A DNA stretch of 64,000 nucleotides from an uncultured virus (IMG/VR IMGVR_UViG_3300043107_000144) (Duplodnaviria > Heunggongvirae > Uroviricota > Caudoviricetes): IMG/VR virus record IMGVR_UViG_3300043107_000144; one strand, given 5' to 3'. The first letter of the stretch is position 1; each line of letters opens with the position of its first letter. The notes under the pieces are model-generated. The model ran no database searches, was not told the DNA's origin, and saw only the letters and a program-made list of their open reading frames with translations. The position numbers and the translations under genes are program-made. This document shows, one piece after another, positions 46,827 through 59,858 of this stretch.

Positions 46827-47561
46827 ATGAAAAAAGAGGAATTAAAAAGCCGTATTAACGCGCTTGTAAGTGAAAAACAGAGTTTGCATGCAGCATTAAA
46901 AGCGGTACTCGAGGTCAGTGAAAAAGAGTCGATTGACGGTGTTGTGCGTAGTTGGGCGAAAGATTTTTGTAGAAAATTTGGAATTACTGAGACGGCGCTT
47001 AAAAAAGCAAATAGGGCTGCAACTAGAGGTCGCGTAATGCCTTGCATCACAATGATTGACAATGTAGCGTACCAACCTTGTAAAATTGTCAAGGTGTACG
47101 GCACTGAGTTCGGGCGCGTACGTTATATCGCATGGACAACCGCACTCGCTATGATTGATTTGGACGCTACTGAGTGCACTCAGGTTGTTGTCAACACTCA
47201 GTCGCACAATGAGTACTACCACGCTGACGGCACACCGTGTACCGCCGAGGAGGTTGCTGAAGTGGAGGCGGCGCGCAAAATTGCCGAGGCTGAGCGCGCC
47301 TTGGTGGCGCTTAGCAAAGCGCGAGCGCTAGTCAAGGAGGCGGACGCGCGCGAAGCCAAAGCCAAAGCCGAAGCCGAAGCCGCCAAAGCCGCAAAAGCCG
47401 CCAAAGCCGCAAAGGAAGCAAAAGCCGCCAAAGCCGCAAAGGAAGCAAAAGCCGCCAAAGCCGCAAAGGAAGCAAAAGCCGCCAAAGCCGCAAAGGAAGC
47501 AAAAGCCGCCAAAGCCGCAAAAGCCGCAAAGGAAGCCAAAGCCGAAGCCGAAGCCAAATAA
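46827..47561 (+). CDS. Protein with C-terminal Ala/Lys/Glu repeats (histone-H1/TolA-like low complexity)
   Basis: (AKAAKAAKE)n encoded by 27-nt repeats; own promoter and terminator. Confidence 0.75.
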   Translation: MKKEELKSRINALVSEKQSLHAALKAVLEVSEKESIDGVVRSWAKDFCRKFGITETALKKANRAATRGRVMPCITMIDNVAYQPCKIVKVYGTEFGRVRYIAWTTALAMIDLDATECTQVVVNTQSHNEYYHADGTPCTAEEVAEVEAARKIAEAERALVALSKARALVKEADAREAKAKAEAEAAKAAKAAKAAKEAKAAKAAKEAKAAKAAKEAKAAKAAKEAKAAKAAKAAKEAKAEAEAK

Positions 47562-47579
47562 GTAGTGTAGTGCTTCTGC

Positions 47580-47613
47580 AAGGGGGGGACTCAAACGGGT
47601 TCCCCCCTTTTTT
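47580..47613 (+). terminator. Intrinsic terminator
   Basis: AGGGGGGGAC...GTTCCCCCCT followed by T run. Confidence 0.8.
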
Positions 47614-48835
47614 GTGTCTATATATTGACTGAGTGCACTCAGGTCAATAGTGTATAAATTACACTTATTTGTAGTGGGTATAACGCCCTCCTATGTATCT
47701 AGTGTATCTAGGTATGTAAGGGCGTATTGCAGCGCCCTTTGCAGCCCCAAAAGTGACGCCAAAAAGGGCGCTATCTCCAAAAACACATTTTAAGCGCTTG
47801 TAAGCGACTTTTAAACAGCTAGACTATAAAGAGTATTACCGCACCTACAAAAGTCGCTTATACGGCAAATAAACCGCTAAAAACGGGTATTGTGGCAAAT
47901 GTATGTAAGTAGGTATATTCCTAGCTTGCTTTCCTGCAGATATGTAGGAGGGTGTACAATACCCTCCTAAAAACGCAAACTATATAGTCGTATTGTTCAC
48001 GTTTTTGGGGCGCGTGTACGCCCCGCCCCGCCCTCCTATGTATCAACGGAGGGGGACGCCCCCCAAACAGCCGGCAGCCGCCTCAGCCTCAGCTCACAAA
48101 TTTTTTATTTTTGAAATTTTTTTCTATCTCTTCGTCTAGTTCTGTTTTGCTTGTCTGTTGCCAATGGTAGCATGTATTTGGTACTGCCGATGTTGTTGTT
48201 GTTGCTGATGTTGTTGTTGTTAGTTTTGCTTGTCTACGCAGGAAGTTTTATGGTTGTGGTATTTATGATGGTGTAGTGTATTGTGGTATGTTTATGGATA
48301 TTTTGCTAATGGTATGATGTTGTTGAGTTTGTAAAACTTGATTTGGCGTTGTTTTCTTTCGATTTGCGGGACTTTTTTGCTTTGTGTGGTAAGATGTTCA
48401 CCTTTTGCTTCATTGATGGCTTACGTGGCTTTATTTTGCGTCAGCGGGGAGATTCCCGACAAGGGTGAACAAAGAGGGAGTGCCTTCGTGTGTGGTGTCA
48501 TGGGTTGCTTATGCGAAGGTACGAAGTCTTTGTGAGTTCTTTCGGGAATAGGTCATGGCTGAATTTCTTTTATATATACGTAGTATATATTTTCTTTATA
48601 TAAGTGTATAGTATATAATCTTTACTTTCTTTTGGTTCTTTTCTTTCTTTTCTATATCAAATAAGGATTTTTTGGGTTTGTTTTTGGGGTTTTGGAATTT
48701 CTTTATATCTTTGCTGTTGATTTCAATGACAGTATTAGTATTAAGCTTTGAGTTTGGCTTGCCCGTGAGGGTAGGCCTTCTTCGTATTTGATTATCAGTG
48801 AATTACAACTTTTCTATAAATTTGTCTTCAAATTA

Positions 48836-49982: not shown

Positions 49983-50741
49983 ATGAAGACGATAAGAGTA
50001 TTTGAGGCTTTTGCCGGCTATGGAAGTCAGGCGATGGCATTGAAGAGATTGGAGAAGGAGTTTCCCGACAAGGTACATTTTGAGTTTGTGGGTATCTCGG
50101 AGATAGACTCTAATCCGATTAAGGCTTATGCCGCCGTTCATGGAGATACCCCGAATTACGGTGACATCAGCAAGATAGATTGGTCGAATGTGCCTGATTT
50201 TGACCTGTTTACTTACAGTGCGCCCTGTACGGACATTTCAGCCGCCGGCAAGCAAGCAGGGTTTGAAGAGGGCAGCGGTACACGTTCATCCCTCCTTTGG
50301 GAATGTAAGAGAACCATCGAGGCGAAGCACCCGAAATACCTTATCATGGAAAATGTCAAGGCAATCACGCAGAAGAAATTCCTTCCGTTCTTTCGTATGT
50401 GGCAGGAATGGTTGAGCGGTCAGGGCTATGTAAATTTCTATAAGGTACTTAATGCCAAAGATTACGGGGTACCTCAAAACAGAGAACGTTGCTTCATGGT
50501 AAGCATACTGGACGAGAACGCCACCTTTGAGTTCCCGAAACCTTTTGAGCTTGAAAGGCGATTGAAGGATGTATTGGAGGATAATGTGGATGAGGGTTAT
50601 TATTTAAGTCCGCAGCAGGTGGAAAGAATCGTAGCCCATTGCGACAGAAAGGTGGCTGAAGGCTGCGGCTTCAAGACTAATTTTACCCCCCCAAGGAATC
50701 AGCGGGGCAATCAAGACAAGAGAAGGACAAAGAGAGTATGA
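49983..50741 (+). CDS. C5-cytosine DNA methyltransferase, catalytic N-terminal part ending just after a C7 tract
   Basis: FEAFAGYG (motif I), SAPCTDIS (IV), MENV (VI), PQNRERCF (VIII). Confidence 0.9.
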   Translation: MKTIRVFEAFAGYGSQAMALKRLEKEFPDKVHFEFVGISEIDSNPIKAYAAVHGDTPNYGDISKIDWSNVPDFDLFTYSAPCTDISAAGKQAGFEEGSGTRSSLLWECKRTIEAKHPKYLIMENVKAITQKKFLPFFRMWQEWLSGQGYVNFYKVLNAKDYGVPQNRERCFMVSILDENATFEFPKPFELERRLKDVLEDNVDEGYYLSPQQVERIVAHCDRKVAEGCGFKTNFTPPRNQRGNQDKRRTKRV

Positions 50742-50914
50742 CACCTACCTTAAAGAACCGTGTGGAGGTAGTAGGGAAGATAAGCAGCTCACAGGACGGA
50801 GTGGTGATAAGTCCGCAGGGGATAGCACCGACGCATACGAGCGGACACGGCAACTGCCCGAAGGTAATGTTAAGAGATTATGAAAGTTCAAGAAGCGATA
50901 AACGTAGACAATGA
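50692..50914 (+). other. Out-of-frame methyltransferase variable-region modules
   Basis: +1 frame QGISGAIKTREGQREYDTYLKEP (open to 50883); +2 frame VEVVGKISSSQDGVVISPQGIAPTHTSGHGNCPKV (open to 50914). Confidence 0.7.
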
Positions 50915-51428
50915 GGGCTGTGCATATACTGTTACCGGAAGGTACTCAGCCATGTGCGCCACGAACGTCATGGGAGGAGGCCATTACCCAATGACCGCTG
51001 TATGCGTAAGGGATGAAGGAATACCACCCCTACCAAAAAAATTAGACATTAAAAGAGAAAAGAAGAATGCCATGAAAGAAGACAAAGAACCCATTACGTG
51101 CGCTCCAAGAAAGAGAGGCGAAGAGCACAAACTGGAAACAGGCGGGAATATAGCCGGTTCCATTACCACTATCGCTACTGACAGTATGGTGACAGAGCCT
51201 AGCGAGCCTGAATACCGAATAAGAAAGCTCACGCCTCGCGAGTGCTTCCGCCTGATGGACGTATCGGACGAGGATATTGACAAGATACAGGCAGCTGGGA
51301 TAAGCAAGAGCCAACAGTATAAATTGGCCGGCAATTCAATCGTTTGCTCAGTTTTGTATCATATCTTCAAGGCGATGTTTATCGAGCAGGTACAGCCGAC
51401 AGAGCCAAGACAATTAGAACTATTTTAA
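50880..51428 (+). CDS. C5 methyltransferase C-terminal part (two variable modules plus motifs IX-X)
   Basis: RIRKLTPRECFRLM (IX), QYKLAGNSIV (X). Confidence 0.88.
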   Translation: MKVQEAINVDNEGCAYTVTGRYSAMCATNVMGGGHYPMTAVCVRDEGIPPLPKKLDIKREKKNAMKEDKEPITCAPRKRGEEHKLETGGNIAGSITTIATDSMVTEPSEPEYRIRKLTPRECFRLMDVSDEDIDKIQAAGISKSQQYKLAGNSIVCSVLYHIFKAMFIEQVQPTEPRQLELF

Positions 51429-51439
51429 AAAAATATATC

Positions 51440-52325
51440 ATGGAAACATTTGGAAAGATAAACCTGATTCACGGAGACTGCATGGATTACCTTCGCTCTC
51501 TTCCAGACAACGCATTTTCGTTAACGTGCGTAGACCCGCCATACTCTGATGGTAAACTGCATGATAATCAGCAGGTTATTGAAGAAATAGGGGGGGTACG
51601 CAGGAGTGGCGGAAGCTGGTTCACGAAGTATCAGCGAAAGATACAACCGCTTCGGCAGCAAGGACAGCCGATTCGAGCGGTACAAGCGGAGTTTGCCGCA
51701 GCCTTACGGGCAGGTTCGGAAGGTACAGGAGGAATTTACCCCCCCCCAACAGTCTATGGAAGAATCTGAAAATGAAGAATATACAGAAATAAGAAACTGC
51801 CGCGGAAGGTTCAAGAAATATGAGCCTGATAGCGACAAAGAAAAGTCAACGACCGGTATCTGGTGGGACGTTGCACCGTCACCTGAATACTTCAAAGAAC
51901 TTTTTCGCGTATCAAAGAATCAGATAATATGGGGAGCCAACTACTTTCCTAATATGCCGCCCACACGGTGCTTCCTTGTATGGAGAAAGCTCACCATATC
52001 AGAGAAGTTCTCGATGGCGATGGCCGAGTACGCATGGACGAGCTTCGACAGGAATGCCAAGGTCTTTGAGTGCGCCCCGCAGGGGAAGAAGAATGACCCG
52101 CGTTTTCATCCAACGGCAAAACCTATCGAGCTATATGCGTGGATATTCAACAACTTCTGCAAGGAAGGAGATACGATACTTGATACCCACTTGGGTAGTG
52201 GTTCATCAGCCATTGCCGCCCATGAGCTTGGGTACGATTTTACCGGTATCGAGATAGACGATGAGTATTATCAGAAGGCAAAGGAGCGGCTTATCAGGTA
52301 TCAGAGCCAGTTATCTCTCTTCTAA
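51440..52325 (+). CDS. N6/N4 (beta-class) DNA methyltransferase, split across frames by G7 and C9 tracts
   Basis: GDCMD...DPPY in the 51440 frame; WDVAP, HPTAKP and ILDTHLGSGS in the 51606 frame. Confidence 0.88.
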
Positions 52326-58966: not shown

Positions 58967-59160
58967 AAAGACAGAAATACAGAATCGGTGATACGGTGAG
59001 CGTGGATAACCGAATAAATAAGATTGATGGGGTTATTAGAAGCGTATATCACTACGTAGGTCATTACGTCTACGGTGTATCGGCAAGCGAGGATGATTAT
59101 CCGCTGTTTATTGGCGAGGAAGAAATAAAGTTAGTGAAGGAGGTGAAATATGAAGAGTGA
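58963..59160 (+). CDS. Small SH3/KOW-like hypothetical
   Basis: KYRIGDTVSV. Confidence 0.5.
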   Translation: MKRQKYRIGDTVSVDNRINKIDGVIRSVYHYVGHYVYGVSASEDDYPLFIGEEEIKLVKEVKYEE

Positions 59161-59858
59161 GTTGATGGAAAGATTTGGCGACATAACAATCTATCATGGT
59201 GACTGCTTGGATATTCTTCCAACGCTTCCAGAGAAGAGCGTTGATGTTATCCTCTGCGACCCTCCATACGGAATAGATTATCAATCCGCCTGGCGGATTG
59301 ATAAGTCTTCACGTAAACCAAAGATTGCCAACGACAAGAAGCCATTTACGAAGCCTATCGCAATGCTATCGAGACTACTGAAGGACACGGGGTGCTGTTA
59401 CATCTTCACCCGATGGGATGTACAGCAGGTCTTCATCGACGAGATGAATGCTCACAACCTTCCAGTAAGGAGCGTTATTGTATGGGATAAGGGCTGTCAT
59501 TCGATGGGCGACCTTTACAAGTCCTACGGTTCGCAGTATGAGAGCATTATCTTCTCTTCAAAGGAGAACTTCAGATTTCCGAGCGGGCGACCAGTTGACA
59601 TCATAAAGGCAGCACGGGTGCCTGCCGAGCAGTTATGCCATCCGAATGAGAAGCCATCGCTATTACTGCAAAAAATTATAATTCAATCAGTTAAGAGAGG
59701 GGGGGGTAATTTTAGACTTCTGTATGGGCAGTGGCAGCACGATGTTGGCGGCATACGACTGCGGATGCGGTGGGATAGGCATAGAGATAGACGATGCCTA
59801 CTACGACCTTGTTAAAAAGAGGTTGAAGATTCATCAAGCGCAACTAAGAATTTTTTAA
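59150..59858 (+). CDS. N6/N4 (beta-class) DNA methyltransferase frameshifted at a G8 tract
   Basis: DPPY and HPNEKP in the annotated frame; SAM-binding VILDFCMGSGST...GIEIDD in the +1 frame after G8 59699-59706; stop 59856-59858. Confidence 0.88.

Follow-up and report, generated by a model that had tools for sequence, protein, structure and literature searches.

Phase variation driven by repeats is, as a rule, found in bacterial pathogens and switches between two states, on and off. In the phasevarions of Type III mod and Type I systems, as described in the available portions of the source reports, simple repeats in a methyltransferase slip, shift the reading frame and generate mixed populations (PMC7383803; PMC13076061). 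The available text on the NgoAV Type I system of Neisseria gonorrhoeae describes a poly-G tract of HsdS that alters what is methylated, with the long and short HsdS forms leading to asymmetric and palindromic sites, respectively (bioRxiv 10.64898/2026.01.10.698759). The Type IIG protein Cj0031 of Campylobacter jejuni, according to the accessible part of its description, contains poly-G inside a methyltransferase-containing ORF (PMC4889913). Hypermutable homopolymers that serve bet-hedging are also described for phages, in accessible sections of the relevant reports, as the poly-G tracts of Campylobacter Fletchervirus and the contingency loci of T2 and T4 (bioRxiv 10.1101/2025.10.21.683753; Sorensen 2021). 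The homopolymer switches of T2 and T4 are a recent claim, and the same preprint, in its available portion, mentions a poly-G tract in the methylase gene of phage BPP-1 (bioRxiv 10.1101/2025.10.21.683753).

The DNA analyzed here (the window) is the whole 64,000-nucleotide stretch of an uncultured Caudoviricetes virus (IMG/VR record IMGVR_UViG_3300043107_000144). Its genome is phage-like, with a 2474-aa tape-measure-like ORF, tail-fibre-like proteins and a KilA-N/ANT protein. A gene on the + strand encodes a small β-class (DPPY ... GSGS) DNA amino-methyltransferase of a tailed phage. The C-terminal half of the gene product matches the Pfam family PF01555 (N6_N4_Mtase) with 61 bits against a cut-off of 26.7 and corresponds to the PHROG 67 DNA methyltransferase; protein P0001 is the same product. 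The N-terminal half alone has no family match in the profile search, and it aligns to the N-termini of the full-length relatives P0002–P0006 and to the CcrM N-terminus, including DPPY. The motif order is that of the β-class, with DPPY (51533–51544) located before LGSGSS near the C-terminus of the 51606–52325 frame. This gene probably contains a slippage-driven, multi-frame loop switch, in which the loop between DPPY and a downstream WD dipeptide is a contingency locus. The locus comprises the following features:

51440..51769, + strand: N-terminal methyltransferase half, 109 aa (ATG at 51440 and stop at 51767–51769; ORF list and frame analysis)
51533..51544, + strand: catalytic motif IV, DPPY (direct sequence reading; equivalent to the CcrM DPPY in the P0002 alignment)
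51590..51596, + strand: G7 tract, proposed entry switch (sequence; a G run of 6–13 in the same loop of relatives)
51597..51738, + strand: inter-tract segment of 142 nt, no stop in any of the three frames (frame analysis)
51602..51640, + strand: loop version A in the DPPY frame, RSGGSWFTKYQRK (frame analysis; homologous loop in-frame in P0002 and P0006)
51642..51689, + strand: loop version B in the C-half frame, YNRFGSKDSRFERYKR (in-frame in P0008, P0009, P0027, P0038, P0095 and L012)
51694..51732, + strand: loop version C in the third frame, CRSLTGRFGRYRR (in-frame in P0016, P0004 and P0040)
51739..51747, + strand: C9 tract, proposed exit switch (sequence; equivalent C runs of 6–12 in relatives)
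51756..52325, + strand: C-terminal half with the conserved core and SAM-binding GSGS (first ATG at 51756, frame open from 51591, stop at 52323–52325)
51798..51824, + strand: constant motif CRGRFKKYE, beyond the exit tract (the same RGRFKKYE at the same place in P0002)
51864..51869, + strand: WD dipeptide, end of the loop and start of the conserved core (W62 and D63 at least 90% conserved in an alignment of 60 relatives)

The DPPY frame (phase 2) is open from the ATG at 51440 until the stop at 51767–51769, and the C-half frame (phase 0) is open from 51591 to 52325 and contains the ATG at 51756. The third frame is open from 51583 to 51792, and all three frames are open at once from 51591 to 51769. 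Between the tracts, a separate [FW]-x(1-2)-[KR]-Y motif is encoded in each of the three frames. The assembled G7+C9 allele is broken, with a stop at 51769, the two halves in different frames and no single uninterrupted coding frame. A net change of −1 or +2 nt is needed to join the halves, and path enumeration yields exactly three open routes. An earlier note on this DNA had reported the positions of both tracts, a stop-free segment of about 140 nt between them, one motif copy per frame with a further copy (CRGRFKKYE) downstream, the stop at 51769 and the ATG at 51756 in the C-half frame; each of these was reproduced from the sequence and by frame analysis, with a segment length of 142 nt. The tract combinations that the note listed as in-frame (G7+C8, G6/G9+C9 and G8+C7/C10) are arithmetically correct, and the three open routes were enumerated.

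In the proposed mechanism, replication slippage would lengthen or shorten the entry (G) and exit (C) tracts, and the 142 nt between them would be kept stop-free in three frames. A full-length enzyme would result from those length combinations whose net change is −1 or +2 nt, and the split of the length change between the two tracts would pick loop version A, B or C. All other combinations would truncate the protein, and the assembled G7+C9 allele would be among these and represent an off state. Switching would occur at a high rate within the phage population. At the level of sequence, three in-frame states and an off state are supported. The run lengths assembled for the window could be miscalled, and the evidence of length variation comes from the relatives.

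The neighbouring genes encode a C5 methyltransferase, the KilA-N/ANT protein, small unknown ORFs and an SMC-like ATPase. Neither the ORF list nor profile and PHROG matching of the neighbours revealed a res or hsdR gene at the locus. Because partner restriction genes were not found at the locus, the methylase is considered solitary and the locus is not classified as a phasevarion. Four of the five G/C runs of at least 7 in the 64-kb window sit in three DNA-methyltransferase genes (C7 in the neighbouring C5 enzyme, G7 and C9 in the gene described here and G8 in a third enzyme at 59150–59815), and the fifth forms the stem of a terminator-like hairpin at 47582. In the assembly, the reading frame of each of the three methyltransferase genes is broken at its tracts.

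The third methyltransferase (59150–59815; PHROG 67) has DPPY near its start. Its frame is broken by the G8 run (59699–59706) just before the SAM-binding LDFCMGSGST, which runs on in another frame to ~59900. The G8 run looks like a plain one-tract on/off switch that is off as assembled; the relatives obtained for this enzyme are two distant loci. The C5 cytosine methyltransferase (49983–51428) consists of three pieces in two frames (49983–50741, 50738–50914 and 50880–51428). The C7 run at 50686–50692 opens the variable target-recognition region of this enzyme and is followed by recognition-domain-like peptides in more than one frame, and a second frame change (about 50875–50914) occurs without a repeat. 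Decay, a split enzyme or a second multi-frame switch could each account for the three pieces. The low-complexity tail of the ORF at 46827–47561, with AKAAKE and KPKP repeats in different frames, forms the longest stretch of the window that is stop-free in all frames (47330–47592; 231 nt on the + strand, 260 nt on the − strand). This tail is followed by a terminator-like G7...C6 hairpin and a T run (47582–47615).

A protein search with the C-half frame identified thousands of relatives, and 160 loci were fetched from viral and metagenome contigs, which together with the window gave 161 sources. The DPPY-to-WD loop was anchored in 128 of the 161 sources, the 33 unanchored sources were dropped, and 112 distinct loops were obtained. 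G/C runs of at least 6 are found in 74 of the 112 loops, with lengths of G6–G13 and C6–C12. They occur at 5.37 per kb in the loops (95 in 17,688 nt) and at 0.158 per kb in flanking phage DNA (68 in 431,224 nt), and are thus 34-fold denser in the loops. The first run is positioned no more than 30 nt from DPPY in 55 of the 73 loops that have a G run of at least 6. At the place equivalent to the C9 tract, C runs of 6–12 are observed in L001, L002, L011, L095, L044, L143, L050 and L133; version C is also present in L001, in a frame that is not used there. In other relatives, the exit tract is a G run or an A7 run instead of a C run. An A7 run is located no more than 24 nt from WD in 58 of the 112 loops and appears to be the exit tract where the C tract is missing; the window has no A7 run at this pre-WD place. 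In the assemblies, 44 of the 112 loops are out of frame; a G/C run is present in 37 of them. Locus L033 contains four repeats, and all of its 27 frame routes are open.

Other repeat forms are observed in the same loops. Where it lies 15–24 nt before WD, the A7 run codes for the KK of KKII.WD (e.g. L005, L007, L008, L033 and L034). Homopolymers are replaced by dinucleotide repeats in L003, L004, L036, L037, L081, L084, L085, L088, L092 and L110; these are (AG)6–17 or (AC)12–21 repeats that are translated as ERERER, with a frame shift of two per unit. The loop of L069, a viral contig, contains a G28 run, compared with G6–G13 elsewhere, which is either an extreme allele or an assembly problem.

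The design is widespread among uncultured phages and among metagenome-assembled genomes with the labels Bacteroidales, Spirochaetes, Fusobacterium and Bacillota. L161–L180 are relatives in metagenome-assembled genomes with the labels Bacteroidales, Muribaculaceae, Sphaerochaeta, Treponema, Fusobacterium, Oscillospiraceae and others. No repeats are present in a Sphaerochaeta isolate genome (L168) or in a metagenome-assembled genome of Sphaerochaeta (L169), and in each of the two a single frame contains both loop motifs. A search of cultured phage records at the DNA level gave no close relative (best match, 17% coverage and 66% identity). A protein search of cultured phages matched 81 records, all with less than 60% identity, and the three that were inspected (Bacteroides phage C3_41T2LP, Streptococcus phage phi3396 and a Flavobacterium phage) have plain loops without repeats or motifs.

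In the full-length relatives, the closest of which is P0002 (74% identity), a middle region that is seemingly unrelated between proteins is flanked by a common G-rich entry (DGGG) and a common proline exit (PP or PPP). To judge from the frame compatibility of the peptides, the dissimilar middles are the same DNA read in different frames. P0002–P0006 are known here as proteins alone, and their compatibility was assessed from the peptides. In pairwise comparison, a single DNA accommodates the loops of P0006 and P0004 at 51 of 71 positions with a +1 shift, those of P0006 and P0005 at 51 of 71 positions with a +2 shift, and those of P0005 and P0004 at 54 of 72 positions with a +1 or +2 shift, compared with at most 24 positions in shuffled controls. 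Moreover, each of the three frame-peptides of the window is in-frame in some natural full-length relative.

Alleles read in different frames are also observed at the DNA level. L044, L143 and L133 read one frame and L050 reads another; all four are full-length, and their tract lengths differ. In the L044 group, the loops exhibit a nucleotide identity of 0.86–0.93 with gaps counted as mismatches, compared with 0.40–0.65 at the third codon positions of the flanks, and the amino-acid identity is alike in all three frames. This pattern is a prediction of multi-frame constraint, and recent cassette exchange could also give the same pattern. Over all pairs, the loop identity (0.57) is lower than that of the first and second codon positions of the flanks (0.78); this comparison is uninformative for distant pairs because unrelated short DNA that is globally aligned already gives ~0.5, and the loop-versus-flank argument applies to closely related groups only. 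A diversity-generating retroelement was also considered as a source of the variation; the variation seen is in frame and run length and not in adenine-specific substitution. The central idea of the earlier note, that the two tracts are entry and exit switches among overlapping-coded loops, is supported in its architecture by the comparison of relatives. As the note had asked, tracts and frames were followed across the relatives: the tracts are kept with lengths that vary between otherwise identical contigs, and the alternative frames stay open with their motifs kept.

The three-frame pattern could in principle be a chance product of T-poor sequence, and the frameshift a homopolymer miscall or the mark of a dying gene. 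Some observations in the window fit this reading. Only one stretch on the + strand is stop-free in three frames for longer than the ~180 nt seen here. When the window was shuffled by mononucleotides, the longest stretch had a mean of 140 (sd 19, maximum 239), and the stretch of the window alone is about 2 sd above this shuffled mean of the longest stretch, which makes a moderate and only suggestive case against chance. The segment is T-poor, with 29 T in 179 nt, and all three methyltransferase genes are broken at runs. Nevertheless, an artefact or decay is scarcely credible and is already contradicted for the architecture by sequence comparison, since composition-preserving shuffles almost never keep three frames open. 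None of 500 shuffles of the 142-nt inter-tract segment was open in all three frames. Among the 19 loci with two G/C tracts, three frames are open between the tracts in 12 and two frames in 7, whereas the shuffles predict 0.41 of the 19 loci with all three frames open. The same design is found in independent assemblies with compensated full-length alleles in each frame, and a miscalled length would change the state of this genome only and not the architecture. The comparative data on the relatives thus appear decisive against chance.

The comparison was extended to all repeat types. Of the 72 inter-repeat segments, 30 have three open frames, 42 have two and none has only one. Among 756 C-domain pieces of matching length from these loci, 121 are open in all three frames (binomial p = 2e-7 against 30 of 72, a value that overstates independence because the compared loci are related and were de-duplicated solely by exact loop identity). 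The pattern W..[KR]Y or F.[KR]Y has 93 matches off the C-frame, distributed over 60 of the 112 loops, compared with none in 112 equal-length C-domain controls. With stricter patterns, 26 of the 68 in-frame alleles and none of the 112 controls have an A- or B-type motif intact in a frame that is not used; these motif and frame counts represent related sequences and not independent events. With the same patterns, 19 of the 68 in-frame alleles have neither an A nor a B motif, and perhaps the motifs are not essential or not all full-length states are active. Altogether, the switch architecture is real and conserved, and apparently under selection.

Run-length polymorphism is directly observed among the relatives. 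Near-identical contigs differ solely in the G run, which is G9 in L075, G10 in L077 and G11 in L072 and is interrupted in L074. L060 and L062 have G7 and L054 has G9 in otherwise identical DNA, and further pairs in the relatives differ as G7/G8, G9/G10 and A7/A8. L077 (G10 and A7) is full-length via a B-type loop, and L061 (interrupted G run and A8) is full-length via an A-type loop, which is the other frame of homologous DNA. The same A7/A8 pairing is found in L175 and L180 from metagenome-assembled genomes. The compensated alleles, in which the entry run is interrupted and the exit run is A8 (L061 and L180), point to selection at the level of DNA states.

In bacteria, long homopolymers lead to transcriptional slippage, and A7 is a classic slippery sequence for RNA-level frameshifting. 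Isoforms could accordingly be mixed during expression of a single genome, if RNA polymerase slips or ribosomes shift frame on the runs of G, C and A, with DNA switching being secondary. Such recoding would fit the A7 runs found within 24 nt of WD in more than half of the loops (58 of 112) and the many tracts that are 9–13 long, and the 44 consensus alleles that are nominally off would be less costly if recoding rescued them. As the primary explanation it is quite unlikely, given that length differences are seen directly in the DNA of otherwise identical contigs and that L061 and L180 are compensated at the DNA level. Recoding complements the slippage-driven loop switch more than it competes with it.

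The position of the switched segment in the enzyme was analyzed by fold comparison using a model of P0065 (214 aa), a simple-form relative, and not the broken product of the window. The P0065 model adopts a β-class methyltransferase fold with a mean pLDDT of 79. Its structural matches are M.BceJIV (Z 16.6), CcrM (PDB 6pbd; Z 16.6, rmsd 3.6, 183 residues aligned), M1.HpyAVI (16.5) and M.RsrI (15.8), followed by M.MboIIA and M.PvuII. The loop of P0065 is modelled with a pLDDT below 50, which counts neither for nor against DNA contact. In CcrM, the available portions of the structural report describe a Loop-2B (residues 31–61) that, as in the gene described here, is a loop starting at DPPY; it is disordered in the monomer off DNA, wedges into DNA and reads the target bases G1, A2 and A3 of GANTC (PMC6787082). 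The window segment sits at the Loop-2B position, and this analogy supports a possible DNA-reading role. In M.BceJIV, the accessible text attributes recognition to the TRD, loop-45 and loop-6F, and in the post-DPPY segment, beyond DPPY, it names Tyr68 alone as touching the flipped adenine (PMC11380664). Since M.BceJIV is equally close structurally and recognises its target by other elements, the role of the CcrM loop in specificity is a precedent and not a rule.

A plain on/off phase variation, in which the loop is a linker that tolerates any frame and the isoforms are functionally equal, would agree with the low pLDDT of the modelled loop, with the frequent out-of-frame alleles (44 of 112, with a G/C run in 37 of the 44) and with the 19 of 68 in-frame alleles that lack both motifs by the patterns used. 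It is unlikely, however, because one tract would be enough for such a device, and the paired entry and exit tracts are left unexplained. Also unexplained are the presence of at least two open frames in all 72 inter-repeat segments and the preservation of intact motifs in unused frames (93 matches against 0 in the controls; 26 of 68 alleles). In the simple forms, the loop is short and contains a nearly invariant RTGGTWAAKYG motif (RTGG.W..KY) that is related to version A. This near-invariance argues that the loop is not a free linker.

For the multi-frame loop switch, the consequence for methylation depends on the loop. The loop would contact DNA as CcrM Loop-2B does, and the isoforms would differ in what, or how well, they methylate, which would allow the population to hedge against varied host restriction systems. 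By analogy with CcrM, isoforms that differ in methylation specificity, as the earlier note proposed, are plausible, at roughly one in three. A more complete version, in which frame shuffling is a phage diversity generator, each isoform methylates a different target and a burst is pre-protected against different host restriction systems, is tentative. As part of this tentative version, the number of isoforms with different DNA-reading loops would be 3 in the window, 9, or up to 27 in L033. Alternatively, the loop could be sensed by a host defence or an inhibitor, and frame switching would alter the loop without altering the methylation target. The alternative peptides do differ strongly around a constant core, and the gene is phage-borne and spread across many host phyla. 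Such an escape from recognition is very unlikely, however, as no sensor or inhibitor is known to us for this family and the aromatic-basic motif shared by the alternative loops better suits a common biochemical role.

By combining slippage with multi-frame coding, one phage gene would move among several full-length proteins and an off state. If the isoforms differ in target, the locus would represent a new viral route to diversify epigenetic protection and a compact natural example of selection that keeps three overlapping frames. The design also affects annotation: in consensus assemblies, roughly four in ten of these genes (44 of 112) appear broken, and gene callers give them as fragments or unrelated-looking proteins.

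The literature search, whose coverage lacked most subscription journals, found no description of entry and exit tracts around multi-frame methyltransferase coding. Within this coverage, the result agrees with the view of the earlier note that the architecture is undescribed, and the design is new as a form of phase variation in the literature searched. Each of the closest systems differs from the window locus in a specific manner. Compared with CcrM Loop-2B, which has a fixed length of 30 residues without repeats, the DPPY-to-WD region of the window would span ~106 residues and has alternative sequences. Cj0031, in the part of its description that is available, has a single tract and an on/off mode in a bacterial restriction-modification fusion. 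In NgoAV, the specificity subunit is truncated and then dimerises, and the available text describes no second tract, frame return or overlapping-coded alternatives. The tracts of Fletchervirus, T2 and T4 are located in receptor-binding or other genes, where one reading is lost or restored, and no multi-frame cassette is described in the accessible sections. Phasevarions are on/off systems with one tract, in which specificity is set by the recognition domain of the allele, and they are chromosomal parts of restriction systems. In contrast, the window locus places at least two tracts around multi-frame DNA in a solitary phage methylase with no adjoining restriction gene.
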